Source of the DNA: Brevundimonas sp.
GTDB taxonomy: Bacteria > Pseudomonadota > Alphaproteobacteria > Caulobacterales > Caulobacteraceae
Assembly (NCBI RefSeq): GCF_041919755.1
Contig: NZ_JAYRTD010000004.1
Coordinates: forward strand, 185,916-225,915
DNA: 40,000 nt
Reading direction: 5' to 3'
The notes under the pieces: generated by a model
Told to the model about the DNA's origin: nothing
The model's input: the letters and a program-made list of their open reading frames with translations, nothing else
Databases searched by the model: none
Shown here: positions 1-21,107 of the stretch, in pieces
Layout of the letters: every line of letters starts with the position of its first letter
How positions within the stretch are numbered: position 1 is the first letter of the stretch
Program-made: the position numbers and the translations under genes

Positions 1-3000
1 GCCAAGACTCCCAACTTGCGTCGATGGGCGTCCATAGAATGGTGGCGAGGCGGTAGAGGTCCGAAACGACGCCGGGGTCCTGGAGGTAGCCTTCCAGATC
101 TGCGCGCAGCTTGTCCTGCACGTTGCCGTGGGCGTCAGCGTCATCCACCATCGCTGACTGGAAGAGAACCAGCAGGGTGGCCTGGAGCGACAGATCCGCG
201 AGATCCCGCTGCAGGTTGAGGGCCGCTTCTTCCAGAGTGACGCCTTTGAGAACAGCTTCTCCGGTCAGGGCGCAGATCAGGATTTGCGCCAGCCATTCGC
301 GGGCGAAGACATTGTCCACCGCAGCGAGGAAAGGCCCCTGCCGCGCCTGGTGATGGAAACGGGCCGTCCGGATGGCCCGATACAGCGCGCCGTCCTCACC
401 ACCCAGCGAGGACCATAAGTCGGTCGGGCAAGCGATGCCCAGCCGCAAGGCGTCGACAGCCAGGGTGAAGCCGACCGCAGCCTGTGTCTCCTGGTTCTCG
501 AAGGTGAAGGTCTTGGTGGTGGTTGATCCGTCCCGGAACCGGATGTCGGCATGGCTCGCAATGGCGAAGCGCCTCATTTCGATCGGCGACAGATTCTGGT
601 GAGTGAGGAACCGCACCTCTGTCACCAGATCGGACCATGGATTGTTGCGAGGAAGCGGCAAGGCCATTCCTGCAAAGCGCGTCACGATCTGGGTCCGCCA
701 CTCGAGTATCGCCTGGGAGGTGTCGAGCACATTCGGCGGCGTCTGCGCCGTCCTGATCGCCAGGGGACGCAGCACCGGAAGGCTGAACACTGTATCGCCC
801 GACCACATCGACCAGTGGCCCAGCACGTCCGCCTCCATGACGGTGGAGACGTCGATCGCCTGACTGATGCTGTCATTGAGAACGGGACAGACCCAATGTC
901 GCTCTCCGCCATGCTGTAGCGCGTAACGCCGCGAGACACGTCCAGGGGCGAAGTCGCGCATGGCCTGCAAGATCGGCATCACCCTCGGATCGGCGTCCCC
1001 GCCATTGATCGGCGGGAGATGGATGACGACCTCGGGCAGGTTTAGATCGCTGAACAGGTTGGCCGGGACGAACTCCGGGAGCGGTGAGTTGTTGATCACC
1101 GTCTCGGTCATCGGCGGCGTCTGGGTCCACCGGGTTTCAAGGCGCCGCAAGGCTGTGGGCAGCACCTCGGTCAGTAGCGGACGCGGCTGGTCCCAGAGTA
1201 GAAGATCGATCTCTCCCGGGTCTAGACGAAGCGCTCTGGCGAGATACTGGGCGTATCGATCCCGCTCCGCCGGTTCGTTGAGGATGCGCGAGATCGCCTG
1301 GGCGAGCCGGGCCTGACGGGTCCGGTTGTCCGCCCAGTCGGACGCCTTGACGAGGTCGCGCCAGACGCTGCCCTTGGGCGCTCCTCCGAGTTGCTCGCTC
1401 AGATAATCGAACGTGGCGTAGACCGACTGAATCCGACGGACGTATCGATTGCTCGTGGGTAGACTGCGGACGGAGAGCTCCGGATCGAACAGCAGATCGT
1501 ACGCCTGATAGGCGATGCGATCGCGACCGTAGTCAGAGAGAACCACCACGGTCCATGGACGCATGCGTCTCGAGCGGCCCGCCCGACCCTTGCGCTGGAG
1601 AAACTGGGCGACGTCTCGTGGAGCCTTGTGCTGAATGACAGCACCGACGCGCGGGTCGTTGAACCCGACCTCCAGAGTCGCGGTGGCCACGACGATATCG
1701 AGGTTCTTTCCTACGCCCGGGTCCAGCGACATCACCCTGCCGACGGCCTTTCGATCCGTCGGGGTCAGGGGATGGCCGATCTCCTGCGGAACTGCCCAGT
1801 CCTGGCCGTGGAGCTTGCGCTGACGGTTGGGCATCGGACGACGAAGGACGGCGAGTCCACCCCGGGGGTGGCGGTTCATGTCATGCCGCGCGGCCGAGTT
1901 GCGCCCCTCGGCGTCCAGCATCGCGAAGTACATGCGATTGGTGACGTCGAGGTCGTCGGTGAAGAGGAACAGTCGCTCGCCGAAAATCCCTTCGCTCTTG
2001 CGCGTGAGCGGCGCATCGAGCGTTCGGGACGTCAAAATCGCCGCTTGGATGGTCGTGGAGAGGAGTGCGGTCCGCGACACCGGATCGCCTCTCAGGGCGA
2101 GCATGTATTCCGCACCCTCCTCGACCATCTGGGACGAGACGGGAGCGATCTCCAGAGATGCCTGCTCGTTGAGCCCGGTCAGGCGCGCGAAGAAGCGGGA
2201 GCCATCGCGCAGTGTCGCCGACAGACCGACGAAGCTGACAGGCTTGCGCAGCATCTTGCGCCAACGCCTGAGGAGAAATGCGACCTGCGCCCCCGAGCGG
2301 CCCGAGTAGGTGTGCACTTCATCAAGCAGCATCATCTCGACGGCGCGCTCGGCCCGACCGCCGAGGCCGAAAAGATGGCGATACTGGGAGTCTCCCATCC
2401 GCTGGTTCAGCATCTCCGTGGTCGTGAAGAGGATGTCGGGGCTGACCGCCTCGAGACGATCCCTGGTGAGGATGATTTCGTCGCTGCCGATGTGATGACC
2501 GCAGGTGTCGCAATGGAGGCTCTCGACCCGATTCTCGCGATCGCCGGTTCGCCATACAAGGTCGCCGCCGCAGCCTTCCGTCGGACAGCGGATGTATTCG
2601 CAGATCAGTCCGTCAGGGTGGGGCGGCCACTTGTCATGGCCGGTCGCGACACTCTTGTGCGATTGGGGCGTCGGTCCGAAAAGCGTGCCGATGAGGATCT
2701 TTCGCCGCCCCTTGGCCGCGAGTTCGGCGTCGAGCGATCGCGCCTGCTCATAAACTTCCGCGAACTGGTCCTTCAGCAGTTCATTGCGCGGATAGAGAGC
2801 CAGGACCTTCACCCAGCGGCTCTCCGGTTCGTCGCGTTGGATGTGGGTCGCCACGCGGGCAAGCGCCGGGAGGTAAAAGGCGAGCGTCTTGCCGCTGCCC
2901 GTCCCGGCGCTGACAAGGGTGGCGCGGGAATAGGGCTGGCTGAAGCCGGAGAGGATCCTCTTGGCGGCCTCGACCTGGAAGTTGGCGAGCCTGAACTTGG

Positions 3001-3493
3001 GCCCGTATCGACCGATCAGCGCGGACAGGGCGGAGCGGGTTTCAGGCTCATCCGCCGCGCTGCCGATGTCGGACAGCGCCTGGGCGGGCATGATCTCGCG
3101 CCGCGGATATCGCCTTCTCCGCCATATGAACCGGAAGTCGGCGACCAGGGTTGGGGCGACTTGCCAGCCGTTCGCTCCGTCGTGTTTGGGGAACAACTGC
3201 CGCAGACGAAACATCAGCCGGACGCTCTCGGCCATTCGCGACCGATACCGTTCGCCTGGATCCTCGCCCACGTCGAAGACGAGCCCGAGCGCGACTAGCC
3301 GATCGACGACGGCGTCCACTGTCGTCAGCGTCAGCCCCTCGAAGGATGCAAGCTGGTCGATCTGATCCCCGACGATCGCCTGCAGGTCGGCATCGGGTAT
3401 GAAGGCATCCACCAGTCCCCAGGACAGGAGGCGAGCTTCCAGTTGCTCCACCTGGTCCAGAACGGCGAAAACGAGGGCGTCGTCAGGACTCAT
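1..3493 (-). CDS. dpdJ: DEAD/DEAH-box superfamily-2 helicase, DpdJ-like (5' part; C-terminus lies beyond the left edge)
   Basis: Hand translation of the minus strand from ATG 3491-3493 is open to position 2 (1164 codons; absent from the ORF track because there is no in-window stop). Motif I VSAGTGSGKTLAFYLPAL, motif II LLDEVHTYSG, GLSATL, VVATATLEVGFND, QRKGRAGRS. Cys-rich insert CPTEGCGG...CDTCGH. ATGA overlap with the upstream gene. Last position in a dpdE-F-G-H-I-J gene order. Confidence 0.8.
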   Translation of the reverse strand, partial: MSPDDALVFAVLDQVEQLEARLLSWGLVDAFIPDADLQAIVGDQIDQLASFEGLTLTTVDAVVDRLVALGLVFDVGEDPGERYRSRMAESVRLMFRLRQLFPKHDGANGWQVAPTLVADFRFIWRRRRYPRREIMPAQALSDIGSAADEPETRSALSALIGRYGPKFRLANFQVEAAKRILSGFSQPYSRATLVSAGTGSGKTLAFYLPALARVATHIQRDEPESRWVKVLALYPRNELLKDQFAEVYEQARSLDAELAAKGRRKILIGTLFGPTPQSHKSVATGHDKWPPHPDGLICEYIRCPTEGCGGDLVWRTGDRENRVESLHCDTCGHHIGSDEIILTRDRLEAVSPDILFTTTEMLNQRMGDSQYRHLFGLGGRAERAVEMMLLDEVHTYSGRSGAQVAFLLRRWRKMLRKPVSFVGLSATLRDGSRFFARLTGLNEQASLEIAPVSSQMVEEGAEYMLALRGDPVSRTALLSTTIQAAILTSRTLDAPLTRKSEGIFGERLFLFTDDLDVTNRMYFAMLDAEGRNSAARHDMNRHPRGGLAVLRRPMPNRQRKLHGQDWAVPQEIGHPLTPTDRKAVGRVMSLDPGVGKNLDIVVATATLEVGFNDPRVGAVIQHKAPRDVAQFLQRKGRAGRSRRMRPWTVVVLSDYGRDRIAYQAYDLLFDPELSVRSLPTSNRYVRRIQSVYATFDYLSEQLGGAPKGSVWRDLVKASDWADNRTRQARLAQAISRILNEPAERDRYAQYLARALRLDPGEIDLLLWDQPRPLLTEVLPTALRRLETRWTQTPPMTETVINNSPLPEFVPANLFSDLNLPEVVIHLPPINGGDADPRVMPILQAMRDFAPGRVSRRYALQHGGERHWVCPVLNDSISQAIDVSTVMEADVLGHWSMWSGDTVFSLPVLRPLAIRTAQTPPNVLDTSQAILEWRTQIVTRFAGMALPLPRNNPWSDLVTEVRFLTHQNLSPIEMRRFAIASHADIRFRDGSTTTKTFTFENQETQAAVGFTLAVDALRLGIACPTDLWSSLGGEDGALYRAIRTARFHHQARQGPFLAAVDNVFAREWLAQILICALTGEAVLKGVTLEEAALNLQRDLADLSLQATLLVLFQSAMVDDADAHGNVQDKLRADLEGYLQDPGVVSDLYRLATILWTPIDASWESW

Positions 3494-4215
3494 TGGGTAT
3501 CCACGGCCCGGATCCGGTAGCCGTTCATGCCGTTGCCGTCCTTCAACCAGACCAGCACGTCGTCTGTCAGCATCGCCAATGGCGCGCCGCCGGCCTGAAC
3601 GGCTGCGAGGAAGGCTTTCACGTCCGGATTGACGTTGTAGTCGAACCGCTCGGCAATTCGCACCAGTTCTGCGGCGAGCGCACGAGCCCTTTCGATAGCC
3701 GCCGGTTCCGTCGGCAGGGACTGGAAGTGCTGCATGAACTTCTCGTGGGTCACCCGATAGGCTTCGAGGGCGTCGGTATTTTCCTTCGTGCCTGCGAGTA
3801 CGCTGCGGATCTTGCCCGGCGCCTCACCCGAGAACAGGGTGGCTCGATAGTCGCGCCAGGCGTCGTGCAAAGCCTTGTCGACATCGACGATGGCGACGGC
3901 GGCTTCATCGACCATGAGACGCCAGCCTTGTCCCTTCTTCAAAGTGGTAGCGGTCCGGTCGGCTTTGAACCTTTCACGCACCGTGCTGGCTTTGCGGCGC
4001 AGCCTGCCGAGGCTGTCCGGGCTGCTCACTGGAACAGAGGCCTGTTCAAGGAGCCTCCGGCGCGCCGAGAGGCTGCCAAGGGACTGCGCCGGCGCGGCGA
4101 GATCGGCTCTCAGGCCCGCGAGTTCACTGGCCTCGGCCTGCTTGCTGGAAAGGGCCTGCAAACGCCCGAGCTTATCCCGCAGTTCAGCGACCCGGGTCGG
4201 GAGGGTCAAGCTCAT
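3490..4215 (-). CDS. dpdI: DpdI-like protein (241 aa, no recognisable catalytic motif)
   Basis: ORF with high GC3. ATGA overlaps at both ends (4212-4215 and 3490-3493). Name assigned from position and size within the dpd restriction module only. Confidence 0.6.
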   Translation of the reverse strand: MSLTLPTRVAELRDKLGRLQALSSKQAEASELAGLRADLAAPAQSLGSLSARRRLLEQASVPVSSPDSLGRLRRKASTVRERFKADRTATTLKKGQGWRLMVDEAAVAIVDVDKALHDAWRDYRATLFSGEAPGKIRSVLAGTKENTDALEAYRVTHEKFMQHFQSLPTEPAAIERARALAAELVRIAERFDYNVNPDVKAFLAAVQAGGAPLAMLTDDVLVWLKDGNGMNGYRIRAVDTQ

Positions 4216-7200
4216 GACGCCGCTCCATCGATGGCAGGGTTCGGATGCACATCGAAGCTGGCCAGAAGATCGTCGATCTCATTGGCGATACGATCCGGGT
4301 CGGCCTGGTCGCTGAGCGCGTACTTCCTATCCACATTGCTTTGGGCGAGGGTGACGATCTTCTCGGCGGCTTCAAGGAAAGACCGTGTGCGGGCCAGTTG
4401 GGTCAGGTCAAGTGAACCCAGAGCATTGAGCAGCTTGTGCACCTGATCCGCGGACGCTTCGTCCGCGATCCTTGCCTTGTCGACCAGTTCGACGATGGGA
4501 CTGGTCCTGAAATCTTCGATGAGTTGCGTGAAGGCCTTGACGCCGAGGTCCGCACGTTCCGGCCAGGTGCTGGTCTCGGACAGGAGGCGGACAATCGCCT
4601 TCAAATCCTCGATAAATTTCGCCTTGTCGAAATCGTCGTCGACGTACACCGCCAGTTCTGCCCGGAACTGGCGAAGCTTGGTGATGAGCGGCTGAAGTTG
4701 CAGCCAGACGCGCTTATCACCGAAGGGTCGAAGATAGTTCAGGATATCCGGGCTGACATCCTCGGCGAGGGATTGGTCTTCCGGCGTCCGGCCGAGGCTG
4801 TCGAGCAAGCGAACGCTATCGATGGCGAAGGGGGTGCCGCCACTCCCCTGGAATACGGAGAGCAGTCCGTGAAGCTCCGCCTGCAGCAAGTCTCGCGCTG
4901 GGCGTCCGCCGATGGGTGATCGAACGCCCTCTCTCAGCGAATCCCAACCCGGCTCGAAGTCCTGGCGCTTGAATTCCGGAAGGGGGTCAAAGAGGCCCTT
5001 CAGCGTTGCGCTGACGTTTCCGGGTTTAAGCGGAGGAGCGAGGCCGCCGATCCGGGCCTGGACGAGCAAACCCTGCGCCAGGGTCTGGACCTGCAACTCC
5101 GCATCCTGAACAGCAATCTGCTCCGCCTGGGCTACCAGCCGATCGATGATCGCATGAACGGCGACATAGTCGTCATCGGCTTCGGGGTAGGTCCAGCCGC
5201 ACCGCCTTTCCTCGTACCGAAGGGCGCCGAGGAACCCCGCGCGAATGGCGCCGTCCTCATCCTCGGATGTCTCGCAGACTTGAAGGGCCCGTTTGGGAGG
5301 GTTGCCCCTGGCATTGGGGATCGCGAGACTGGTGGCGGGTATGGCGCGCTTGCGAACGCGCAGACGGGGCCACTCCATCGATCTCTCAAGATGTGGCAGA
5401 AGGGCGTTGCGGATCGACCGCGCGTCACTCTGGCCAAGTTCAACGCCCCGCGCCCAGTCGTCGAGCACCGACAGCCATCGGGTGACGAAGGGGTCGCCGT
5501 CCGGTGTAGGGACGGGCTCTGCCTGTGCGCTCGCGTTGCTGGTCGCCGATGCGGCTTGCGAGGCAGCGTCTGTCGCGGGTTCGACGAAGGCGATGCTGGC
5601 CAGTTTGTGCGGCGTCGGGAGGCCGAACGCGTCGAAGAGGCCATGCGGCAGATGTGATAGTCCGTCCTCGTCGGACGGATTGCCGCCCCAGACCGGCAGG
5701 AAGGCTGCCAATCTGTGACGAATGCTCTCGCTCTGGTTCGTACGCTTGATCCAGCCGGCGAGGAAGGCGTTCGGGACGAAGGTCTTCTGATCCGCCGACG
5801 GGAAGTTGTTGGCTTCGTAAAGGCGACGAAGCAGCAGGGTATTGCGAAGCAACTCGTTGATGATCTTGCGCGGGTTGAAAACCAGGACGCCGTTCTTGAT
5901 CAGGTGGGTCTCGGCGAGGACCGAGATCGCCTGCCGGTTAAAGGGGAACAGCGGCGCGCCGGCCGCTGAGTAGCCAAAGGCGTTGAGCAACGTCTGGTCC
6001 CGGTCGGCGTCGTTGTCGTCGCGCCAGATCGGCAGCCAATCGCTAGCCGTCCCGGTAGCGGTCGGCTTGAACAACCGTTGCAGTTCCGTCTCGCCCCACC
6101 GCGCGGCGTTGAGGTAGGCGCCGACCAGGTTGACGGTCGCATCCTTGATTTCGGCGTCGTTCAGGTCGCGGCCGCCGACGACCCATTCCTTTTGCGCCCG
6201 AGTGAACATGGTGTCCCGGAAGGACAGGACGCCGTCTGTCAGCGCGATGGCGGTCCGCATCGTGGCGCGGACCGTCTTCCCACCATAGCTGCCTTCCTGG
6301 ATGCAAACCTTCAGGAGGGCATCCTGGATACCGGACAGGGCCGCGAAATCCTCAACGAGGAGGACGAGGTCCTTACCCTCCTGAAGGAGGGTTTCCCGAA
6401 CCGCCAGGATGATGTCCTGGAAGGTCATGCCTCCGGTGGATTGCTGGAGTTGGAACACGTTGCCGATCGCCGGATCAATCGCATCATTCAGCAGATCGAC
6501 GGCGATCTTGATCTTCGACGGGTCAGCCGAGGCAAGGTTGCGCTGGAAATAGCTTTTAACCGCCAGCGCCGCCTGGTTCAGGTCGACGTGTTGCGGCAGT
6601 TCAAGGTCTTCCGGCACGAACCGGCTCTTCCGGTCGTCCTCCTCCGTGCTCGTCTCGGCACGTCCCTTGAGCGCCCGTTGCACGATCCGGGACAGCACCT
6701 TTTCCAGGAAATGATCAGCCAGAGCGGCGTCCGCGAAGAGCTTGGGCAAGTCGCGGGAATGACCGATCCGGAGGCGCAGGTCCGTCCGGTCAGGGTTTTC
6801 TCGGTACTCGGTTTCGAGGCGCGCGCCGATCTCCTTCAGGGTGATCTCGAGGTGGGCGCGGAAGGTGACGGCGGCGGCCTCGATATCAACAGCAGCCACC
6901 GCTTTGGTGAGTTCGCCGCGAGCCTTCGCGTAAGCCGGGTTGTCCGCCAGCGGTTCAAGGATCCGTTCCACGACCGTGCGTAGGCTGGCGCTCTTGGGAA
7001 TCCGGATGATGTGGAGGCGATCGCGTTTCGCCGACCGCTGGAGTTGGGCATCCAGCCATCGGATCATGTGCGATTTGCCGACACCCGAGGCTCCGGTGAT
7101 CGGAAAGAGCAGGAAACCTGCTGGCACATCGTCGGTGAGGAAGGCCTCGAGGAGCGCCTCCTCTGAAACTTCACTTTCGAGGCCCGAGCCCACGTCCCGG

Positions 7201-7316
7201 GTGGTCAGGGGCGAGGGCTGGTGGACCGCGAGCAGCACGGCCACATCGGCGGTCTCCGCCTCGTTCTTAATGCAGGCGTTCACCTGCGCGGCGTTCGGCC
7301 AGTAGGCGTCGATCAT
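4212..7316 (-). CDS. dpdH: DpdH-like large P-loop NTPase (about 1034 aa)
   Basis: Walker A ITGASGVGKSHMIRWL. Start moved to ATG 7314-7316 (MIDAYWPNAAQ...), which forms an ATGA overlap with the dpdG stop. The track start at 7349 would overlap dpdG by 37 nt. Confidence 0.7.
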   Translation of the reverse strand: MIDAYWPNAAQVNACIKNEAETADVAVLLAVHQPSPLTTRDVGSGLESEVSEEALLEAFLTDDVPAGFLLFPITGASGVGKSHMIRWLDAQLQRSAKRDRLHIIRIPKSASLRTVVERILEPLADNPAYAKARGELTKAVAAVDIEAAAVTFRAHLEITLKEIGARLETEYRENPDRTDLRLRIGHSRDLPKLFADAALADHFLEKVLSRIVQRALKGRAETSTEEDDRKSRFVPEDLELPQHVDLNQAALAVKSYFQRNLASADPSKIKIAVDLLNDAIDPAIGNVFQLQQSTGGMTFQDIILAVRETLLQEGKDLVLLVEDFAALSGIQDALLKVCIQEGSYGGKTVRATMRTAIALTDGVLSFRDTMFTRAQKEWVVGGRDLNDAEIKDATVNLVGAYLNAARWGETELQRLFKPTATGTASDWLPIWRDDNDADRDQTLLNAFGYSAAGAPLFPFNRQAISVLAETHLIKNGVLVFNPRKIINELLRNTLLLRRLYEANNFPSADQKTFVPNAFLAGWIKRTNQSESIRHRLAAFLPVWGGNPSDEDGLSHLPHGLFDAFGLPTPHKLASIAFVEPATDAASQAASATSNASAQAEPVPTPDGDPFVTRWLSVLDDWARGVELGQSDARSIRNALLPHLERSMEWPRLRVRKRAIPATSLAIPNARGNPPKRALQVCETSEDEDGAIRAGFLGALRYEERRCGWTYPEADDDYVAVHAIIDRLVAQAEQIAVQDAELQVQTLAQGLLVQARIGGLAPPLKPGNVSATLKGLFDPLPEFKRQDFEPGWDSLREGVRSPIGGRPARDLLQAELHGLLSVFQGSGGTPFAIDSVRLLDSLGRTPEDQSLAEDVSPDILNYLRPFGDKRVWLQLQPLITKLRQFRAELAVYVDDDFDKAKFIEDLKAIVRLLSETSTWPERADLGVKAFTQLIEDFRTSPIVELVDKARIADEASADQVHKLLNALGSLDLTQLARTRSFLEAAEKIVTLAQSNVDRKYALSDQADPDRIANEIDDLLASFDVHPNPAIDGAAS

Positions 7317-8218
7317 CTCCGCGCTCCCGGCGCTTGGGCAGGTCGCCACACGTGGGTGAAGGATCGCCAGAGACGGCCGTTCACGCCTGTCAATTGGAGT
7401 CCGTCCGCGGCATCGGCCTTCTGTTCGATCGCCAGTTCGCCGGCCTGAGCCAGTCTTTCGATCGCCCTCGAGAACGAGGTCGAAAGCCGGTTCTCAGCCG
7501 GCTTCGACCAGGCTTTGTCGTCGAGCACGCCCTCCACCATCTGGCGGTAGATCCCGTGGTCCAGGACCGGCAGGAGCTCGACGACCCGTCCCAGGAAGTC
7601 GCGAGCGGTGATCTGCGACGAGTTGGGAAGGACATCCGGCAACACGTCGCGCAGGGCAGGCGTCGGATCGATCGTGAACGCGTCCCCTCGCCCGAACCCG
7701 AGGTAGGTGGCCCAGGCCTTGAGGCCGTTCCAGCGCGTGTCGTTCTGCAGCACGAGCTTGGACTCCTCGCGAACCTGGTCGCGTTCGAGCGCCTCGATCG
7801 CGTAATGGGAAGAGGTGTCGATGGCGTAGACGTCCTGAGCCAGAAGCCACGCGAGCGCGCGCGTCAGGTCGGCGCTTTTGTTCTCCTTCGCCTCCCAGAA
7901 GCGTTGGTTGTTCTCCGGTTTCAGGACAATTTCGCGGGCCACGGCCTGAAGCCCGGCCTCCGCCTTGTCCGGGTCCTTTCCGAGTCGCTTTCGATAGGGC
8001 TCGCTGAGGACCGTGGAGCCATCCGGCGCTTCGAAGAGGCCCAGTTCATGCCAGCGGATGAACGTCGAATTGAGCTTGCTGGAATCCACCCCGGGGGCGT
8101 CCGCCCCGCATATCGCTAACAGTTCGGCCCGCTCGCGAGGGCCGAACCTCACCGACGCACGCACCAGGGCGATGAGAACATTGAACTGACCATCACTGGC
8201 TTGGTTGAGAACGCTCAT
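7313..8218 (-). CDS. dpdG: DpdG-like protein (about 301 aa)
   Basis: ORF with high GC3. Start moved to ATG 8216-8218 (MSVLNQASDGQ...), giving an ATGA overlap with the dpdF stop. Name from synteny and size. Confidence 0.6.
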   Translation of the reverse strand: MSVLNQASDGQFNVLIALVRASVRFGPRERAELLAICGADAPGVDSSKLNSTFIRWHELGLFEAPDGSTVLSEPYRKRLGKDPDKAEAGLQAVAREIVLKPENNQRFWEAKENKSADLTRALAWLLAQDVYAIDTSSHYAIEALERDQVREESKLVLQNDTRWNGLKAWATYLGFGRGDAFTIDPTPALRDVLPDVLPNSSQITARDFLGRVVELLPVLDHGIYRQMVEGVLDDKAWSKPAENRLSTSFSRAIERLAQAGELAIEQKADAADGLQLTGVNGRLWRSFTHVWRPAQAPGARR

Positions 8219-13700: not shown

Positions 13701-14081
13701 GCGATCCCAACGAACGTACACGGACCCCACGTCGAGGTGTCGCGTCATGTCGTTCGGGAACCGGACGAGCTGAGTGTCGCCATGGTCATCCAGGAGGCGG
13801 CCGATTTCCCAGGCCGCGAGTCCCGAATTGTAGGAATAGACCCGGGTCTGAGACGGCAGGGTCAGGCTCCGAATGTCGGCGGCCAGACACTGATGAAGGA
13901 CTGGCTCGTCCATCGGCGTATCGAAATATTCGACGGTGCAGTCGGGGCCATTCTGGGCGATCAGCTTGCCGATCCCCCAGTGGCGCGCCTCGCCCGCGAT
14001 GGCGGTTACGAACACTGGACGACGAGCCTCCGGTCGCCGATTTCGATGGCGAAAGCGCACTCGAAAGCCCGCCGGTCGCAC
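10791..14081 (-). CDS. dpdE: SNF2/Rad54-family helicase, DpdE-like (up to 1096 aa)
   Basis: LLADEVGLGKTIEAG (motif I), LVIDEAHHLT (II), LLLSATPALHNE (III), VLVCDRRAEEGLNLQ, HYDLPWNPNRIEQRLGRADRYG (VI). The GTG start at 14081 is uncertain; an in-frame GTG at 14015 is an alternative. Confidence 0.8.
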   Translation of the reverse strand: MRPAGFRVRFRHRNRRPEARRPVFVTAIAGEARHWGIGKLIAQNGPDCTVEYFDTPMDEPVLHQCLAADIRSLTLPSQTRVYSYNSGLAAWEIGRLLDDHGDTQLVRFPNDMTRHLDVGSVYVRWDRPIIDPTRFLSAGITETPRFTDGRAPFMRSLLRQRAASLGMSALASSAIELEAHQVEVVRRVLQDPIQRYLLADEVGLGKTIEAGVLIRQCVLDDRDDAVVVILAPDALVSQWRAELTTKFFVGDLLDSTIIVAPLSARPDKIRRHLAAATMLVIDEAHHLTTDSRAPEAALYSEVVAAAPAIDRVLLLSATPALHNERGFLRMLHLLDPTGYPLDGEAAFRKRIEGRQALAEIVASLTPDNALYLDDTLDQLSEMFPDDVRLMSEAGRLRQIIVTMPQEDDPDLITAIDLVRDHLSEVYRLHRRVLRHRRRNVAGLTPDRAGAEVVRYRSAASGAAAAASENWRFAEMVGQDATAVDAGSLSASRDLAERQATYAINPASEPPPQGPRARAEYHQTLTSTIASQRARDRIDQLGIALRDRLTTKSQFIVFCSDPETADEIASSLKQSLDRPVDRHDPASDDWRAFGDDPTRTVLVCDRRAEEGLNLQGGEKTIVHYDLPWNPNRIEQRLGRADRYGSGASVKSLLLCCEDDVTELAWSRYVDEGLQVFDRSIASLQYLIEKTVHDLPALLLTEGAEGLVDLLAQDGGDSGRIAREIRNINQQDALDALGSPPADTLDALTDIDDEWRQIEADLGGWIQTTLMFGRNPEPPGEAPSGLGGAFRYRYLTGAQHTLLPLDAFFRHCEPAIDRDVRVTRSRDVWTTPYSYRRLSVLSRQGRSLGTRLLRYGDPLVTGLRSLAERDERGRSTAFWRHLPESEGGSPRLYFRFDFVVEADIAPAYDILELGNRLTPAAASSLKRRGDMALEPSFHTIWLDSERRIVFDAELLSALEAPYRVNATDRGGRDFNINPRRWRALKTLGVDHLSDWADLCSEARAAAEAALRSLPALNEELAVAARRAETLASGRLGLLQARAARTGQSEGSDERDLRLESDLAAQLIDGIRTPKISLDAVCACFVSADLAVATALARI

Positions 14082-14177
14082 ACCGGTCGGACCGGCTGGA
14101 CCGGACTCATCGACACTCCCCGAACTGAGCGGTGACGCTCGCGCGGATGAAGTTGATTTGCAACCGTAAAGTGAGAG

Positions 14178-14879
14178 TTACGCTTGTGTCGCGAGGCTCG
14201 CCCAGCGTTCAAAGCCGCTCCGGCGGAGGTCGCAGGCTGGGCATTCGCCGCAGCCTCTGCCCCACGGGTTCATCGTGTCGACGTCACCCTTGTAGCAGGT
14301 GAGGGTTTCGGCGCGGATCAACTCGACGAGTTCAGCGCCGCCGAGCGCGTCGGCCAGGGCCCAGGTCTGCGCCTTGTCGATCCACATCAGCGGCGTCTCG
14401 AGCACGTGCCGGGATTCCATGCCGAGGTTGATGGCGACCTGCAGCGCCTTGATCGTGTCGTCCCGGCAGTCCGGATAACCGGAGTAGTCGGTTTCGCAGA
14501 CCCCCGTCACGACATGCTTTAGGCCGCGCCGGTAGGCGATCGCGGCGGCGAAGGTGAGGAACAACAGATTGCGGCCGGGCACGAAGGTGTTCGGCAGGCC
14601 CGAGGCTGCCGTGACGATCTCCACGTCCTGGGTCAGGGCGGTGTCGCTGATCTCGCCCAGGACGCCGAGATTGAGGATCCGGTCCTCGCCGAGTTTGTCG
14701 CCCCAGTCCTTCAGCGCGCGGATCCGGTCGAGGACAACCGTGCGGGCGTCAAGTTCAGCGCGGTGTCGTTGGCCGTAGTCGAAGCCGATGGTTTCGACGT
14801 GGTCGAAGCGATCCAGCGCCCAGGCCAGGCATGTGGCGGAGTCCTGTCCGCCGGAGAACAGGACAAGGGCGCCGCTCAC
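14178..14879 (-). CDS. queC: 7-cyano-7-deazaguanine (preQ0) synthase QueC
   Basis: N-terminal PP-loop [18 protein letters not shown]-terminal Zn cluster CYKG...[10 protein letters not shown]. 233 aa. GTG start overlaps the queD stop (GTGA at 14876-14879). Confidence 0.93.
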
Positions 14880-15265
14880 GCCGCCTCGCCGAAATAGGTG
14901 ACCTGATCTTCGGTCGAGTCGCGCAGCACCGTGACGCTGAACAGGGTGGGGATGTCATCCTCAAGCTTGCGCCAGATGTAGGCGCAGAGGTTCTCCATCG
15001 TGCCGGGGCCGAGGTCGTTGATCTCATCGAGGAAGCGGTGGTCAAGCGCATCGCGCGCCTGGGCCAGCTTCATCGCCAGCAGGGAGGTGTCGATAATCAT
15101 GCCGCTGACCGGGTTGGGCTTGCCGCGCAGGGTCACCTGGGCGCGGTACGAATGGCCGTGAATGCGCCGGCTGCCCTCGGTCTCCACGACACGTTCGAGG
15201 GTGTGGGCGCAGTCGAAGCGGAATTGTTTGGTCAGTTCATACATGGCGTGGCGAGAGAAGATCAT
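14876..15265 (-). CDS. queD: 6-carboxy-5,6,7,8-tetrahydropterin synthase QueD
   Basis: [15 protein letters not shown]...RIHGHSY (Cys plus His-Gly-His metal and active-site signature). The track start at 15424 overlaps dpdB and is Pro/Arg-rich junk. A realistic start is ATG 15265 (MIFSRH...) or ATG 15244 (MYELTK...). Confidence 0.88.
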
Positions 15266-15287
15266 GAGTCGCGGGTTTGGCGCAGCG

Positions 15288-16376
15288 TCATGCGTCGGCG
15301 GCCTCGGCCGCGGCGGCGCGTCTGGCGCGCAGGTCCTTGCGGACGATGCCGTCGAGGTATCGCGCCAGCATGGAGATGTCGCCGGCGGTGACATTGATCG
15401 CTTTCCAGAACCGGACATCGCCATTGCCGAAGTCCCATTGGCCTGAGGTCCAGGCCGTCCGACCCTCCAGGCAGGCGAGCCCGTCGAGGAACTGGCTCCA
15501 GGTGCGGGCGCCGCCGAGTTGGGCGAGGGTTTCCATCACGTAGCCGAGCGACTGGATGCCGGCGCCGCCGACCAGGCGGGAGGTCGAGGGCTTGTGGCTG
15601 TACCAGTCCGTGGGGAAGGCCATCTTCACGGCCTTGTAGAACTCGCTGATCAGATCGAAGCACTGCCGTTCGCCGTTCGGCTCGGTGATCATCGCCCGCA
15701 TGATGCCGTCGCTGAGTGAGTTCATCAGCACCTTCTGGATCGCCGTGTCCTTGATCACGCCCGACGGATTCGTGTGCAGATGGATCATCCCATGCAGGGA
15801 GGACGACTGATTGAAGTTCAGCCGGTCGGTCAGCTTGGACGCCAGTTGCCGGCTCTGCATCCGGTCGGGCAGGCCGTCTACGGTCGGCAGCAGTTCGTAG
15901 ATCAACGACTTCGGCAGCGGACGGGTGTTGTTCACCAGCACGAACTGGCGGCGCAGCTCAGCCTCGTCCTGGCAGATCATCAGCGACACGAAGAGCTGGA
16001 AGTCCTTGCGGGAGGACAGCCCCAGTGCGGTCAGTCGCTGCTGGCCGTCCACGACCAGGCCTTTGGGCCCGTCCGTGAGGTCGATCGTGACCTTGCAGAT
16101 CCCGTCCCCCATCTCCTCGAGTGTCACGCCTTCGGTGAAGGCGACCACGATGGCGTTGGGAATGATGGCGGTCGGCGTCTCCAGGTAGTCGCGGATCTCG
16201 CGGATATGGCCGGCGATCTGGGGGCGCTGGAAGCCGCTCAGGACGCCTTCGCCATCCCGGCTGACGCGGTCGATCTCGGAGAAACTCAGGACTTGTTCGG
16301 CGGTCGCGGCGAACGTCAGCACGTCGTGGACGGCGCTCTGTTTCGCGCGCGCCGCCATGAAGCTCAGGGTCGTCAT
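15288..16376 (-). CDS. dpdB: DGQHR-domain (ParB/DndB-like) protein, DpdB
   Basis: GFQRPQIAGHIREIRDYL...PNAIVVAF and VVDGQQRLTAL (DGQHR-type motif, here DGQQR). Immediately downstream of dpdA with an ATGA overlap at 16373-16376. Confidence 0.8.
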   Translation of the reverse strand: MTTLSFMAARAKQSAVHDVLTFAATAEQVLSFSEIDRVSRDGEGVLSGFQRPQIAGHIREIRDYLETPTAIIPNAIVVAFTEGVTLEEMGDGICKVTIDLTDGPKGLVVDGQQRLTALGLSSRKDFQLFVSLMICQDEAELRRQFVLVNNTRPLPKSLIYELLPTVDGLPDRMQSRQLASKLTDRLNFNQSSSLHGMIHLHTNPSGVIKDTAIQKVLMNSLSDGIMRAMITEPNGERQCFDLISEFYKAVKMAFPTDWYSHKPSTSRLVGGAGIQSLGYVMETLAQLGGARTWSQFLDGLACLEGRTAWTSGQWDFGNGDVRFWKAINVTAGDISMLARYLDGIVRKDLRARRAAAAEAADA

Positions 16377-17659
16377 GCGGCTTGGTCCTTGGCGGGTGTG
16401 AGAGCGTCGACGACGGTCTTGAAGGCGGCGAGGTTATGGATGCCGCGGCGCTTGTTGCGGTTGCTGGCGCGGAAGATCATCACCTCGATGCCGACGTCCT
16501 TGCAGATTCGGCAGCCGCAGCGGCGCCAGGGTTTGTCGGTCAGGGTCTCTCGGTAGCGCGACCGCAGCTTTTCCATGGTCGGCTTGTCGCGAACAAACTC
16601 GTAGGCCTGTCCAGTCGCCAGCACGGCGTTGTACTCGAGAACCGTCTCAAGAACCGCTTCGAGATCCTGGTCGTCGTGGTCGTAAGCCCGTAAGGCCGCC
16701 AGAGCGCTGGTCTCCATGCGGGTGAGGTGCTCCGCCTTGAAATCCCCTTGGCGTACGTGGCGCTGCAGACGCGGGTTCTCGATCGCCTGGGGAACGCGGA
16801 TCGCCGTGTAGTAGGACAGTCGGGGGCCGTCTCCGAGCCAGTAGTTCTGTTTGTCGTCCTTGAAGGCGCGGATCAGCGGCGAGGTCGTGTCGACGCTGGT
16901 GACGTTGAACGGCACGAACTCGTGGATCTCGTTGGGCTTGGCGAAGCCGAGAATATGAAGTCGGGTCGAGGGCGGGACGGCGTCCCGGATCGCCATGAGG
17001 CACCGCTTGATCTGCTCGGCCTTCAGCGGAACCATGCCTCCGATGGCGAGGTAGTCGTACCCCATGGCGACGAGGCGCCGGGCGGCTTCGGCCATGCTGT
17101 CCGGCGACCAGCCCTGGATGACGCCCATCGGCGTGAAATCCTTCACGCTCCGGGCCTCGCGCAGGAAGGCGTCCGCGTTCTCCAGAGTGATGTCGTAACG
17201 CCGGCGCGCTTCGGCCGAACCGCCGGTCATTCCGAAGACGCTCTCGTCGAAGTCGAAGATGATGTGGTCGACCGAGCAGCCGTGGGTGAACCCGCAGTCG
17301 TGGTAGAACTCCACCGTGTCGGCTGGGGTGTAGGGCGGATTGTCGTCGGCGACGTAGGTGAAGGCGCCGCAATCTCCGAACAGGTCCAGATCCGCGAACT
17401 CCGGCTTGTTGAGGCGCAGAAACTCGCGCGCGCCGACCCGACGGAAACGCATGGCCTGCGCTTCGGTGTACTTGCCCCTGACCGGCCCGTCTCCGACGAT
17501 CCCCCGCGAGACCAGCATCCCGTGATAGGGCGCATAGCCGAGGATCTCGTGCGGATAGGCATCGTCCCAATATGGCTTGCGGCCCGGGGTGTTGCGATCG
17601 TTGATGAAGTCGTAGCCCGGATCCACGAAGTCCAGGCTGTCGGCATAGATGAACTTCAA
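16373..17659 (-). CDS. dpdA: tRNA-guanine-transglycosylase-like DNA transglycosylase DpdA
   Basis: 428-aa TGT-superfamily protein. C-terminal Zn motif CGCRIC...(22 aa)...H, as in TGT CxCxxC-H. Embedded between DGQHR genes next to queC and queD. Apparent TTG start forms a TTGA overlap with the upstream stop. Confidence 0.85.
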   Translation of the reverse strand: MKFIYADSLDFVDPGYDFINDRNTPGRKPYWDDAYPHEILGYAPYHGMLVSRGIVGDGPVRGKYTEAQAMRFRRVGAREFLRLNKPEFADLDLFGDCGAFTYVADDNPPYTPADTVEFYHDCGFTHGCSVDHIIFDFDESVFGMTGGSAEARRRYDITLENADAFLREARSVKDFTPMGVIQGWSPDSMAEAARRLVAMGYDYLAIGGMVPLKAEQIKRCLMAIRDAVPPSTRLHILGFAKPNEIHEFVPFNVTSVDTTSPLIRAFKDDKQNYWLGDGPRLSYYTAIRVPQAIENPRLQRHVRQGDFKAEHLTRMETSALAALRAYDHDDQDLEAVLETVLEYNAVLATGQAYEFVRDKPTMEKLRSRYRETLTDKPWRRCGCRICKDVGIEVMIFRASNRNKRRGIHNLAAFKTVVDALTPAKDQAA

Positions 17660-18756
17660 CGGGTCGGCCTCGAAAGCTCTCGGTCGAGTTTGAGCAGATG
17701 CTCACTCAGACCTTTGACGTGTTTGCTGGTGGCTTGAATGTCGTCCCAGGCCCAGCCCAGCCCTTCCCAGTCGCCGCTCGTCCAGCGACATCGGGGCGCG
17801 ATGCGGTCCAGGGCGGCTGCGACTTCCGCGGCCGGGTCGGCGCTGGCGTCGGCGCGGGTCCAGATCGGATCCATCAGGGCGCCCATCGCCTGGATGCCGG
17901 CCGAATGCATCAGGCGGCTGTCCTCGGAGGACAGGCCCCAGGCGTCGGGGAAGGCGTCGCGGACCGCGCTCCAGTAGATGCAGAGCGCCTGGAATGCGGC
18001 GTCCGTCCCGCCCTCGAGATCATAGGCGCCAAGCGCGCCGGCCGGACGCAGATTGGCCGCGATCGCCCGCGTCAGGCCGGAGTCGGTCACCACGCCTTTT
18101 GCGCCGTCACTCTGGGATTCGCGTTTGATGAGCCCCACGAACGGAGACTCGGGATGGTCCGCCAGCGCGGCGCACAGGGCGCTGGGGACCTGTCTCGGCT
18201 TGAGCGACTTGGGTAGGGCGATCGACATCGCTGGCAGCAGTTCGTCGATCAGTCGGGACGACAGCGGTTTGGCCTTGTTCACGAGGATGAACTGCGCCCT
18301 CTGGGTCTCGACTTCGTCCGAGATGAAGGCGACGACCGGCACTTGCAGTTGGGCCTGCTTGGCTTTCGACAGTGCGAGCGATCGTTGTTGGCCGTCGACA
18401 ATCCATGCGGCCCTCTGCCCTTCCGCCCGGATCGGGATGTGGAGCACTCCGCTGCGGACGTCGCCCCGCTCGGCAGCGGGACCGCGGGCGGACTCGAACC
18501 GGACCTGAGGAGACAGCGCCAGGATGATAGCGTTCGGGAAAAGGACGGGACCCTGGCTCAGGAACTCGGCGATCTCCGAGACGTGGGCCCGGATCTCTTT
18601 ACGCTGGAAGCCTTCGAGATTGCCCTCGCCCCGTCGCAGGCGGCTGATGTCGGCGACCTCGGTGACCTGATCGCCGGGCAGGAAGAAGGCGTACACTTCA
18701 ATGTCCGGACCTTGCCGGGTCTTGAGCGCGCGAACCGAGAGCTTGGCCCCCTTCAT
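17656..18756 (-). CDS. Second DGQHR-domain (DpdB-like) paralog
   Basis: GFQRKEIRAHVSEIAEFL...PNAIILAL, IVDGQQRSLAL, FILVNKAKPL, SRLMHSAGIQAMG and RWTSGDW all align with the dpdB product at 15288-16376. Start moved to ATG 18754-18756 (MKGAKLSV...), giving an ATGA overlap with the upstream stop. Confidence 0.8.
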   Translation of the reverse strand: MKGAKLSVRALKTRQGPDIEVYAFFLPGDQVTEVADISRLRRGEGNLEGFQRKEIRAHVSEIAEFLSQGPVLFPNAIILALSPQVRFESARGPAAERGDVRSGVLHIPIRAEGQRAAWIVDGQQRSLALSKAKQAQLQVPVVAFISDEVETQRAQFILVNKAKPLSSRLIDELLPAMSIALPKSLKPRQVPSALCAALADHPESPFVGLIKRESQSDGAKGVVTDSGLTRAIAANLRPAGALGAYDLEGGTDAAFQALCIYWSAVRDAFPDAWGLSSEDSRLMHSAGIQAMGALMDPIWTRADASADPAAEVAAALDRIAPRCRWTSGDWEGLGWAWDDIQATSKHVKGLSEHLLKLDRELSRPTR

Positions 18757-19667
18757 CGAACACGTCCGTTTTTTCTGGCGGCGGAGACGAGCGCGAACAG
18801 ACGTTTGAACCGCCCTTGCTCGCAAGCTGTGGCCAGGTCGTCGCGCAGCCGTCGCAACATGGCCCCCGACCGCCCCTGGACGATGTCCCAGTCGCGTTTG
18901 ATGATGGCCGTGATCTCCTCGTCCGACCTCTTCGCTCGCGTGGGAAGTTGGCGAGCGAAGTATCCCGCCAGGCTCGCTTCCACGGCGCGACGATGCTCAT
19001 CCTGGGTGCCTTCGGCGGCAATGGCGGAGGCGAAGTGCCTGAGCGCGCGCTGAGCGAAGTCGCTTTGGGTGCCGGCATGTCCGTTCCCCAGGGCGTCGAG
19101 ACGATCGTCATAGGGCATCCAGGCGGGCAGGAGATCTTCCGCCGCGCCGTGGGGTTGCTCTTTCGTGAAAAGGCGAAGGCGATCGCGGCGCTCTGACGGC
19201 CACTGGGCCCACTCTTCGGCGACCATGGCGAGGTAGCCGGACGAGAGCGCCGCCAGGATCAGTCCATCCTCGGTCTCGACGGCGGTGGTGTGAAAGGGGG
19301 ACTGGGTCTGGATTGACGCCCACCATTCCGATGGCGTGCTGGCGGTTTTCACAAGGATGCCGTCCGGATCACCGGCGGCGGTCGTCAGGCTGTAGGAGGG
19401 AACAGACGTCGTTCCAGCGACCAACCCGAGGCCAGCGGACACGATGGCGAGACGGGCGTCGAGCGACTTCGCGGTTTTGGCCGCGTCATGAAAGGCCCGT
19501 CCGCCATAGAGTTCGCCAGCCAAGACGGTCGGCTTCGCAGCCCGCAGACGTTTGGCCCACGCCGTCGCTACGGTGGCCGAAGACCCCTCCGCCAAGGCGC
19601 CAGCGTGCAGCGTCGGGTCGAGCGGGGTCCGCTTTCTTTTGCTGCAGTTGGAGATAACGAGGGTCAC
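18753..19667 (-). CDS. dpdC: Candidate DpdC (about 304 aa; first gene of the modification module)
   Basis: High-GC3 coding starts at GTG 19665-19667 (VTLVISNCSKRKR...). The 42 codons between ATG 19796 and this GTG have only 19/42 G/C at third positions, so the track start 19841 and ATG 19796 are unlikely. Function assigned by position next to dpdA and dpdB only. Confidence 0.5.
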   Translation of the reverse strand: MTLVISNCSKRKRTPLDPTLHAGALAEGSSATVATAWAKRLRAAKPTVLAGELYGGRAFHDAAKTAKSLDARLAIVSAGLGLVAGTTSVPSYSLTTAAGDPDGILVKTASTPSEWWASIQTQSPFHTTAVETEDGLILAALSSGYLAMVAEEWAQWPSERRDRLRLFTKEQPHGAAEDLLPAWMPYDDRLDALGNGHAGTQSDFAQRALRHFASAIAAEGTQDEHRRAVEASLAGYFARQLPTRAKRSDEEITAIIKRDWDIVQGRSGAMLRRLRDDLATACEQGRFKRLFALVSAARKNGRVR

Positions 19668-19740
19668 AGTTTCCGCGCCAGGTTTGTTACGATCTGCTGC
19701 AGTTTCTGCGAGCAAATCACGATTTCGAGGCGCAGTTTCC
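19666..19740 (-). promoter_or_regulatory. Three phased CAGTTTC (minus strand GAAACTG) motifs in the dpdC leader
   Basis: ACAGTTTCC at 19666-19674, GCAGTTTCT at 19699-19707, GCAGTTTCC at 19732-19740. Spacing is exactly 33 and 33 bp. The promoter-distal copy abuts the proposed GTG start. Confidence 0.3.
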
Positions 19741-19873
19741 CACGCGGTCGCGGCCGAATCCAGTGAGTCTCGGAAGCAACTGTGGCGATAGATCATCTGC
19801 CGGCCGTGCCGAGCGTTCGCTTCACCGTCGGGTTTGTCCAACGGCGGAGGGCGGAAGATTGGCGCTGCCAGGT

Positions 19874-20083: not shown

Positions 20084-20116
20084 GGCCCAAGCGCACTAGA
20101 AAGCTCATATCGAACC

Positions 20117-20489: not shown

Positions 20490-20522
20490 GGCCCAAGCGC
20501 ACTAGAAAGCTCATATCGAACC

Positions 20523-21105: not shown

Positions 21106-21107
21106 CT

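Follow-up and report, generated by a model that had tools for sequence, protein, structure and literature searches.

A probably complete Dpd DNA-modification and restriction island in Brevundimonas with two DpdB genes and a QueD-like enzyme lacking the usual catalytic cysteine

Does the minus-strand gene block that opens this 40,000-nucleotide stretch of Brevundimonas DNA (the window) encode a whole Dpd defence system, and how closely does it follow the known ones? In Dpd defence a cell's own DNA is marked with 7-deazaguanine bases and unmarked DNA is attacked; for the dpdA-K system of Salmonella enterica serovar Montevideo, Thiaville et al. 2016 is reportedly the reference. We consider it very likely that the block belongs to a complete restriction-modification island of the canonical dpdA-K Dpd (7-deazapurine in DNA) type, whose gene arrangement is alphaproteobacterial and Brevundimonas-like. 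Gene family membership, conserved catalytic residues, operon integrity and conserved synteny are all directly seen. The locus is an already known defence system, and it is ordinary except for a doubled DpdB gene and a QueD-like enzyme without the usual catalytic cysteine.

Twelve close-packed genes occupy positions 2..19667 of the minus strand in the order dpdC-dpdB1-dpdA-dpdB2-QueD-like-queC-dpdE-dpdF-dpdG-dpdH-dpdI-dpdJ, with dpdJ cut by the window edge. Adjacent genes share 4 bp at C/B1, B1/A, A/B2, PTPS/queC, E/F, F/G, G/H, H/I and I/J, and the only intergenic gaps among the twelve genes measure 22 bp (dpdB2 to the QueD-like PTPS gene) and 162 bp (queC to dpdE). No internal stops were found in the twelve window ORFs, nor in dpdK and dpdD on an identical contig described below. 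In profile searches, DpdA, both DpdBs and DpdE, F, G, H and J scored above the NCBIfam equivalog cut-offs; the PADLOC Dpd models agreed with these calls and also matched DpdC. Synteny of the module dpdC-B1-A-B2-(queE)-PTPS-queC extends across ~60 alpha-, beta- and gammaproteobacterial genomes, Brevundimonas being nearest. A first-pass annotation had proposed a Dpd island here and listed eleven proteins. The NCBIfam equivalog and PADLOC Dpd models support that identity, and all eleven proteins were found on the minus strand in their proposed places, with sizes that agree when the starts of public gene calls are used. That list omitted a twelfth ORF lying within its span (18753..19667, 304 aa), which is DpdC.

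The dpdA gene (16373..17659) encodes a DNA-guanine transglycosylase of 428 aa that scored 555 bits with NF041059 (cut-off 200) and is 44% identical to S. Montevideo (Sm) DpdA (PDB 7ui4; E 1e-99). By alignment, D96, F100, D131, L237, D257 and F266 are the counterparts of Sm D95, F99, D130, L236, D256 and F265; the roles of Asp95, Asp130 and Asp256 in the Sm enzyme have been described (PMC10164549). The zinc site C381/C383/C386/H408 (C-x-C-xx-C...H) is present, and the protein carries GGMVPL, a preQ0-type GGhsbb loop. Nucleophile, general acid, base-binding Asp, zinc site and preQ0-specific loop are all conserved. At one position Sm H181 is replaced by Q182, and Gln is likewise found in all 62 relatives, that is, in the whole clade. 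The first-pass annotation had asked whether this TGT-like protein groups with tRNA TGTs. It does not: the tRNA Tgt model, with its cut-off of 306.75, gave 18.8 bits, and a tRNA TGT identity was rejected. Assignment to the tgt superfamily model (26 bits, cut-off 47.6) was also rejected.

DpdC scored 297 bits (E 5e-89) with PADLOC model PDLC02815. Its identity rests on the PADLOC models together with weak matches to Pfam DUF6884 (20 bits, under the gathering score of 30) and to YaaA/DUF328; the ten NCBIfam Dpd models matched here (DpdA, DpdB, DpdD-K) include none for DpdC. By analogy with S. Montevideo, for which the roles of DpdA, DpdB and DpdC were demonstrated in vitro (Gedara et al. 2023, PMC10164549), DpdC is predicted to turn dPreQ0 in DNA into dADG.

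Two ParB/DndB-like DpdB paralogues, 31% identical to each other and both bearing the NTPase motif DGQQR, are encoded on either side of dpdA. The first, dpdB1 (17656..18756, 366 aa), scored 418 bits with NF041060 (cut-off 300) and E 1e-124 with PADLOC DpdB, and 59 related loci conserve it on the upstream side of dpdA. The second, dpdB2 (15288..16376, 362 aa, DGQQR at aa 109-113), scored 370 bits with the same model; its ortholog occupies the same position in 63 related loci, with DGQQR in all. Two DGQHR proteins had been anticipated and two are present, but both are DpdB paralogues, DpdC being the separate, unlisted ORF. We rejected their assignment to the dnd-associated family (TIGR04172; ~51 bits, cut-off 450). 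The two paralogues probably act as a heteromer.

Downstream lie the restriction genes. dpdE (10791..14015) encodes an SNF2-family helicase of 1074 aa with the motifs DEVGLGKT and DEAHH (NF041062, 976 bits; cut-off 500), and dpdF (8215..10794) a RecQ-like DEAH helicase of 859 aa (NF041063, 889 bits; cut-off 550). A RecQ identity for DpdF was rejected, the recQ model reaching 182 bits of the 640 required. dpdG (7313..8218, 301 aa) scored 299 bits with NF041064 (cut-off 80) and has a precomputed Pfam assignment to PF28110 DpdG. The product of dpdH (4212..7316) is a BrxC-like P-loop ATPase of 1034 aa with a Pfam AAA_22 match and the Walker A sequence GASGVGKSH (NF041065, 805 bits, cut-off 450; PADLOC DpdH, E 7e-120). 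At the left edge, 2..3493 holds the N-terminal 1164 codons of dpdJ, a YprA-like DEVH helicase that scored 1478 bits with NF041067 (cut-off 800) and covers positions 1-1143 of the 1482 in that profile; the remaining 351 codons, at the C-terminal end, are past the edge. Between dpdH and dpdJ, the 241-aa product of a dpdI-like gene (3490..4215) aligned with the DpdI profile NF041066 from end to end (2-239 of 239) at 105.5 bits, under the cut-off of 150, and matched PADLOC DpdI with E 0.003; it had no Pfam match. The gene's size, its place in the operon and the 4 bp that it shares with each of dpdH and dpdJ agree with dpdI. The letters E to J, first assigned from order and size, were all right, tentatively so for DpdI, which fell short of its NCBIfam cut-off (105.5 versus 150).

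The operon continues beyond the window. A public contig, L005, is 100% identical to window positions 1..14215 and extends left through the rest of dpdJ into dpdK and then dpdD, so that these two genes are known from a different assembly, identical over the overlap. The full DpdJ on this contig is 1515 aa long and scored 1814 bits. DpdK, a PLD-like nuclease, scored 192 bits (cut-off 100) and DpdD 538 bits (cut-off 300); both lie outside the window, in the order J-K-D. The prediction that dpdK would be found just past the left edge thus held on the identical contig. It was also correct that no dpdD stands between the modification and restriction modules, but the gene is present after dpdK; since L005 carries it there, dpdD is not missing but relocated to the operon's 3' end. 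Identical copies of the island occur in several independent metagenome assemblies. A relaxase gene neighbouring the island on the left extension is truncated.

The QueD-like gene (14876..15265) encodes a PTPS-family protein of 129 aa that scored 69 bits with the QueD model TIGR03367 (cut-off 89.25) and 74 bits with TIGR00039 (cut-off 125.5). It aligns with E. coli QueD (PDB 3qn0, 4ntk) at E 1e-15. Like QueD and other PTPS-I enzymes (COG0720), it has the T-fold PTPS fold (Pfam PF01242) and, in E. coli QueD numbering, retains the zinc ligands His16, His31 and His33 and the Asp70-His71 pair; it differs from them in its sub-cut-off NCBIfam scores, in Glu110 to Arg and in Cys27 to Ser. The QueD signature CxxxHGH, in which Cys is catalytic (motif definitions in PMC5041015 and PMC9894224), is replaced by SxxxHGH (SRRIHGH), and none of the PTPS-II (Cx5HGH), PTPS-III (ExxHGH) or QueD2 (Cx4HGH) motifs was found in the protein. 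The QueD call of the first-pass annotation therefore stands as to a PTPS-family gene, but fails on signature motif and model cut-off. The serine is common to 119 of the best 120 homologues, and the protein has a conserved acidic residue six positions ahead of HGH. Wherever the context of such S-type genes was examined, in the related genome loci and in four loci of one database homologue, they were dpd-linked. Here the gene is a neighbour of queC, and related islands have it between queE and queC; canonical CxxxHGH QueD fills the same queE-queC slot in 22 related islands, and one locus, L045, holds S-type and canonical C-type genes side by side. queC itself (14178..14879, 233 aa) encodes a 7-cyano-7-deazaguanine synthase with a C-terminal zinc motif CGECPAC (TIGR00364, 205 bits; cut-off 150.3). 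Although most related islands have queE, none is present in the window, and preQ0 supply would thus rely on unseen host genes.

Upstream of dpdC by 206 bp lies a co-directional XRE-family HTH gene for a 69-aa protein (copy A, 19874..20083, minus strand; Pfam HTH_3, E 3e-14), which may control the operon. The right end given to the island in the first-pass annotation (19873) is the last base before this gene. A second gene (copy B, 20280..20489, minus strand) encodes an identical 69-aa protein. The two belong to a 406-bp tandem direct duplication (19806..20624) whose units are ~98% identical and each hold one HTH gene and one perfect 16-bp palindrome, AGTCACTATAGTGACT, a candidate operator. It stands at 20117..20132, ~33 bp upstream of copy A, and again at 20523..20538, upstream of copy B. 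Two exact matches occur in the window, where 0.01 are expected by chance; at up to 3 mismatches there are no further matches in the window, and the palindrome is not repeated ahead of dpdC or dpdE. Other assemblies of this locus also have the HTH gene ahead of dpdC; no homologue was detectable in most related dpd loci. Controller (C) proteins of type II restriction-modification systems are small XRE/HTH_3 proteins encoded upstream of the restriction-modification genes, with a palindrome at their own gene. As a 69-aa XRE/HTH_3 protein encoded upstream of and co-directional with such genes and preceded by a perfect palindrome, the HTH protein resembles them. It differs from type II C proteins in its two tandem copies and in the absence of the palindrome before dpdC and dpdE.

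All eleven protein families of the S. Montevideo system, DpdA-DpdK, are also present in the Brevundimonas island when the extension is included, the DpdI assignment being tentative. The two share the DpdA catalytic Asp residues, zinc site and preQ0-type loop, the DpdB DGQQR motif and the restriction arm order E-F-G-H-I-J-K. In contrast to S. Montevideo, which has one DpdB and carries dpdD between dpdC and dpdE, the Brevundimonas island has two DpdBs flanking dpdA, dpdD after dpdK, the QueD-like gene and queC between the modification and restriction modules, Gln for His181 in DpdA, an XRE-type HTH pair upstream and a high-GC alphaproteobacterial host. According to the available text of the GATOR-GC dpd survey (bioRxiv 10.1101/2025.02.24.639861), gene content varies, an extra dpdB is the commonest duplication (n=801), PTPS/QueD occurs in 78% of islands and QueC and QueE in >20%, and dpdD and dpdI are the least conserved members. 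The survey already documents both additional dpdB copies and linked que genes. That same portion of the survey does not split the two DpdB paralogues into orthologous lineages or remark on a linked PTPS without the QueD catalytic cysteine for this subtype.

The cysteine-less PTPS raises the question of whether this is a Dpd-like system with chemistry unlike that of Salmonella, in which the protein is a neofunctionalised T-fold enzyme and not a CPH4 synthase, and the base or precursor route is non-standard. SxxxHGH, Glu110 to Arg and the low QueD score would fit, as would the serine in 119 of the best 120 homologues, the dpd linkage of every S-type gene examined and the coexistence of S-type and C-type genes in L045; the phage enzyme DpdL is a proposed precedent for such a T-fold enzyme. 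We nevertheless find this reading rather unlikely. The S-type gene sits in the exact queE-queC slot of canonical QueD, which suggests the same role, and the zinc ligands and Asp70-His71 are retained. The acidic residue six before HGH could serve as base in place of Cys, like Glu in PTPS-III. DpdA carries the preQ0-type loop, and QueC and DpdC are canonical.

It is highly improbable that the locus is a decaying or modification-only remnant whose restriction arm no longer functions. The sub-cut-off DpdI and the lack of queE could be taken that way, and the truncated relaxase nearby suggests a degraded mobile element; however, the twelve window ORFs (dpdJ completed on L005), dpdK and dpdD are full length with coupled starts, the helicase and Walker motifs are intact, and identical copies recur in independent metagenome assemblies. 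Another system with shared folds, such as Dnd/Ssp phosphorothioation (DndB-like), DISARM, BREX or a tRNA queuosine operon, has next to no chance of being correct. Weak cross-matches do occur: the dnd-associated family picks up the DGQHR proteins (~51 bits), DrmD picks up DpdE (140 bits), both DrmA and DruE pick up DpdJ, and the tgt superfamily picks up DpdA (26 bits), but all lie far under the cut-offs (450, 610 and 47.6 bits for three NCBIfam models), whereas the Dpd models exceed theirs. DISARM was rejected with DrmD at 140 bits against 610 for DpdE and DrmA at 16 against 950. Among the ORFs searched, there was no match to DndA, C, D, E, SspA-D, PglX or DrmMI/MII models, and none to a methyltransferase.

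For the complete canonical Dpd island that we favour, we infer dPreQ0/dADG chemistry and restriction activity. The island QueC and QueD-like enzyme would, with host FolE and QueE, supply preQ0, after the S. Montevideo scheme. DpdA would exchange guanine in DNA for preQ0, a step expected to require ATP hydrolysis by DpdB, here present as two diverged, probably heteromeric paralogues encoded on either side of dpdA, and DpdC would then form dADG by hydrating the nitrile. The restriction arm, acting on DNA without the mark, would be made up of DpdE, F, G, H, I and J with DpdK and DpdD, comprising three helicases, a BrxC-like ATPase and a PLD nuclease. The small putative XRE-type repressor, with its own candidate palindromic operator and two tandem upstream copies, probably controls expression.

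A further reading, which we hold to be unlikely yet conceivable, is that these islands form a distinct and widespread proteobacterial Dpd subtype, with an obligate B1/B2 DpdB heteromer in place of a homodimer and an island PTPS paralogue with a new activity. If so, the paralogue could make CPH4 with a carboxylate base; alternatively, a different 7-deazaguanine precursor could be its product or its substrate, in which case the mark in DNA may be something other than plain dPreQ0/dADG. A QueD-like enzyme that is linked to dpd genes and lacks the essential cysteine would represent either a new way of making CPH4 or, for 7-deazaguanine chemistry, one more neofunctionalised T-fold enzyme. We know of no explanation in the literature for the ATP requirement of DpdA/DpdB; the naturally split B1/B2 pair, kept across ~60 genomes, offers a means of separating the roles of the two protomers. 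The annotation should be useful for defence-system catalogues and for transforming or phage-typing Brevundimonas-like strains.

A single, tight co-directional block of minus-strand genes at window positions 1..19873 had been described in the first-pass annotation as a Dpd-type 7-deazaguanine DNA modification/restriction island. Our analysis supports this reading with four corrections, which concern the identity of DpdC, the presence of two DpdBs, the 3′-terminal position of dpdD, and a QueD-like gene that departs from the canonical type. The block is present as claimed, and the motifs quoted for it (CxCxxC...H, DEAH, DEVH and P-loop) were all found. It encodes all eleven proteins originally listed, but the list omitted a twelfth ORF within the same coordinates, which is DpdC. 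Using the gene starts of public gene calls on identical assemblies, verified on the window sequence, the block reads, from right to left and all on the minus strand, dpdC (18753..19667, 304 aa), dpdB1 (17656..18756, 366 aa), dpdA (16373..17659, 428 aa), dpdB2 (15288..16376, 362 aa), a PTPS/QueD-like gene (14876..15265, 129 aa), queC (14178..14879, 233 aa), dpdE (10791..14015, 1074 aa), dpdF (8215..10794, 859 aa), dpdG (7313..8218, 301 aa), dpdH (4212..7316, 1034 aa), a dpdI-like gene (3490..4215, 241 aa) and dpdJ (2..3493, 1164 codons, open at the left edge). Adjacent genes overlap by 4 bp at nine junctions; gaps occur only between dpdB2 and the PTPS gene (22 bp) and between queC and dpdE (162 bp).

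The letters E to J had been assigned from gene order and size, and profile searches bore them out, with E–H and J above and I below the NCBIfam cut-offs. DpdA scored 555 bits against its NCBIfam equivalog (cut-off 200), DpdE 976 (500), DpdF 889 (550), DpdG 299 (80), DpdH 805 (450), the truncated DpdJ 1478 (800) and QueC 205 (150). DpdI covered its profile from end to end, but its score, 105 bits, stayed under the cut-off of 150. Both of the reported DGQHR proteins are present, and both match NCBIfam DpdB (418 and 370 bits, cut-off 300); they are thus DpdB paralogues, and DpdC is the separate twelfth ORF, identified by a PADLOC model (297 bits, E 5e-89). The PADLOC Dpd models agreed with the NCBIfam assignments throughout.

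Several other systems share protein families with this block, and each was weighed on curated cut-offs. The DGQHR proteins might have indicated a Dnd/Ssp system, but the dnd-associated DGQHR match fell far below its own cut-off. A DISARM reading was rejected in the same way, as the DrmD and DrmA matches were far below theirs, and so was a tRNA-queuosine operon, since the TGT-like protein matches tRNA TGT far below its cut-off and does not group with the canonical enzymes. The match to RecQ was likewise far below its cut-off. BREX was also rejected on curated cut-offs; a 2025 preprint describes DpdE as BrxHII-like and DpdH/I as BrxC-like, i.e. BREX-like, and DpdJ as a YprA-family helicase. Because these cross-matches all fell so low, the Dpd reading stands. 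By analogy with the Salmonella system, we infer that the island modifies DNA by the same chemistry and restricts unmodified DNA.

The left end of the operon was recovered from a public 53-kb contig (L005), which carries the exact DpdI sequence and is 100% identical to window positions 1..14215. On this contig the full dpdJ encodes 1515 aa (1814 bits) and is followed by dpdK (179 aa, PLDc_2; 192 bits, cut-off 100), which had been expected just past the left edge, and then by dpdD (763 aa; 538 bits, cut-off 300), the three genes being joined by 4-bp overlaps. The earlier observation that no dpdD lies between the modification and restriction modules was correct, but the gene is not missing; it forms the 3′ end of the operon. 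The PLD motif of DpdK (L005 15267-15806) reads HVKGILLK...GSMN, in which the His and Lys of the classical HxK(x)4D are kept and Lys occupies the Asp position.

DpdA shares 44% identity with the S. Montevideo (Sm) DpdA of known crystal structure (PDB 7ui4, E 1e-99), and we mapped onto our protein the residues named in the structure paper (PMC10164549). The general acid/base D96, the nucleophile D257, and D131, F100, L237 and F266 are all kept, as are the preQ0-selective GGMVPL loop and a zinc site formed by C381/C383/C386/H408. The sole change among the mapped residues is Gln182 in place of Sm His181, which contacts the base. A DpdA scan with one genome per species returned 64 related loci, and Gln occupies this position in 62/62 DpdA relatives, a clade associated with two DpdB paralogues.

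DpdB1 and DpdB2 share only 31% identity, and both retain the DGQQR NTPase motif. The motif is present in all 63 B2 orthologues and, by regular expression, in 56 of the 59 B1 orthologues; in the remaining three, a GFQR-type motif upstream was matched first. In a tblastn map of the related loci, nearly all B1 and B2 genes flanking dpdA best matched their own paralogue, which indicates that the duplication is old and has been maintained. The NCBIfam scores (418 versus 370 bits) do not discriminate which paralogue is the ortholog of the single Salmonella DpdB. Because that protein is a homodimer, we infer, as the obvious reading, that DpdB1 and DpdB2 act as a heteromer.

The 129-aa PTPS protein had been called QueD. 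It does resemble QueD, aligning to the E. coli structures with E 1e-15 and retaining the zinc ligands and Asp70-His71, but Ser replaces the catalytic Cys27 (SRRIHGH), Arg replaces Glu110, and its score lies below the NCBIfam QueD cut-off. None of the published COG0720 signatures (CxxxHGH, Cx4HGH, Cx5HGH and ExxHGH; PMC5041015, PMC9894224) occurs in it. This S-type is not peculiar to the window: among the top 120 homologues in the database, 119 are of this type, and a widely sampled Erythrobacteraceae homologue belongs to a conjugative element, where it sits within a dpdC-B1-A-B2-queE-PTPS-queC module. In related islands this position is filled by a canonical CxxxHGH QueD 22 times, by an S-type 32 times and, in four Xanthomonadales loci, by a YxxxHGH type. 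The shared slot speaks for a common role, CPH4 synthesis; the loss of Cys and Glu, together with the adjacent S-type and C-type genes of one locus (L045, at 13015 and 13492), calls for caution. We therefore consider that the S-type protein probably works like QueD, although neither signature nor cut-off establishes its membership of the family; an acidic residue, conserved at the sixth position ahead of HGH, perhaps serves as the base. A Brevundimonas MAG (L012) has an extra 170-aa ORF, PTPS-like by eye, between an HTH pair and dpdC (7071-7583), and a search of the window found no counterpart.

Many related loci carry queE (e.g. L022 12380-13012), about 45 of them between dpdB2 and the PTPS gene and four others (three Brevundimonas, one Caulobacter) upstream of dpdC. 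A tblastn search of window 1-40000 with the QueE of a related island gave nothing below E 0.1, so preQ0 supply has to draw on a queE of the host.

The proposed right boundary, 19873, falls just short of a 69-aa XRE/HTH_3 gene (19874..20083) on the same strand as dpd. Some 33 bp upstream of it lies a perfect 16-bp palindrome, AGTCACTATAGTGACT. Gene and palindrome form a 406-bp unit that occurs twice in tandem (19806-20624), with ∼98% identity and identical HTH proteins. Several public assemblies of the locus break within this repeat, so its copy number is provisional; in the L012 MAG, however, an HTH gene with 37% identity is likewise duplicated in tandem upstream of dpdC (6327-6880), which argues that the arrangement is real. 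The HTH protein is a putative controller-like regulator of the operon. The palindrome is absent before dpdC and dpdE, allowing up to 3 mismatches. Promoter and terminator predictions across 13900..21000 did not outnumber those in shuffled sequence, and the sole promoter-like matches lie opposite the palindromes, overlapping them on the other strand. Scanned in full against Rfam at gathering thresholds, the window returned no match and hence no preQ1 riboswitch.

Right of the island lie a FecI/FecR/TonB-dependent receptor set (20608-25119) and an adjoining lasso-peptide-like cluster (25130-30400); in a B. vesicularis chromosome, both keep synteny with the dpd module. The cluster encodes an S9 peptidase with weak similarity to the AtxE2 isopeptidase (25130-27658), a cyclase resembling Asn synthase (27594-29339) and a B2-type protein above its NCBIfam cut-off (29339-29989). 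Two tandem small ORFs, one at 30253-30369 and another ending at 30047 and starting MKTTR..., may be lasso precursors. Farther right are the conjugation genes TraG (31778-33691), TrbB-like (34124-35080) and TrbE/VirB4-like (35948-38371), and beyond dpdD on L005 (18118-20581) we found a convergent gene for an RlxS-type relaxase, truncated at its C terminus, and a gene with a YAcAr domain. ARAGORN found no tRNA marking an integration site. The conjugation genes on one side and the relaxase on the other suggest that the dpd island and lasso cluster may travel on an integrative conjugative element with a damaged relaxase.

The closest DpdA relatives are from Brevundimonas (82–90% identity); one B. 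vancanneytii contig (L072) is 99.96% identical over 2.5 kb, the match ending within queC at window 14472. More distant loci occur in Caulobacter, rhizobia, sphingomonads, Methylocystis, Caballeronia and Xanthomonadales. By tblastn map, the module dpdC-dpdB1-dpdA-dpdB2-(queE)-PTPS-queC is present in essentially all the related loci, near and distant, whereas the restriction arm varies, some loci having an E-F-G... arm like the window and some a convergent D-K-J. The closest arm of the former type, in a Caulobacter MAG, is 63–68% identical. The nearest Brevundimonas loci (L011-L016, e.g. L013 13526-20952), which have the most similar modification module (PTPS gene up to 99%), carry a different restriction arm, a divergent dpdF-G-H-I without dpdE, all scoring below cut-off. 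Erythrobacteraceae (L075-L078, 9079-16375) may have another effector arm, since after the modification module they encode a PycTM-like protein, a HAD hydrolase, a protein of 736-762 aa and an AAA_11/AAA_12 helicase of 2105 aa.

Passages of a genome-mining survey of dpd islands (GATOR-GC, bioRxiv 10.1101/2025.02.24.639861) describe variable gene content: dpdB is the gene most frequently duplicated (n=801), 78% of the islands encode PTPS/QueD and >20% QueC and QueE, and conservation is lowest for dpdD and dpdI. Features that seemed odd at first are thus already documented, at survey level, in those passages, and the island is a further example of the known Dpd system. Because relatives combine a similar modification module with differing restriction arms, it reads as a mosaic of a Brevundimonas-type modification module and a canonical-type restriction arm; on these sequence comparisons, the two modules seem to recombine independently.
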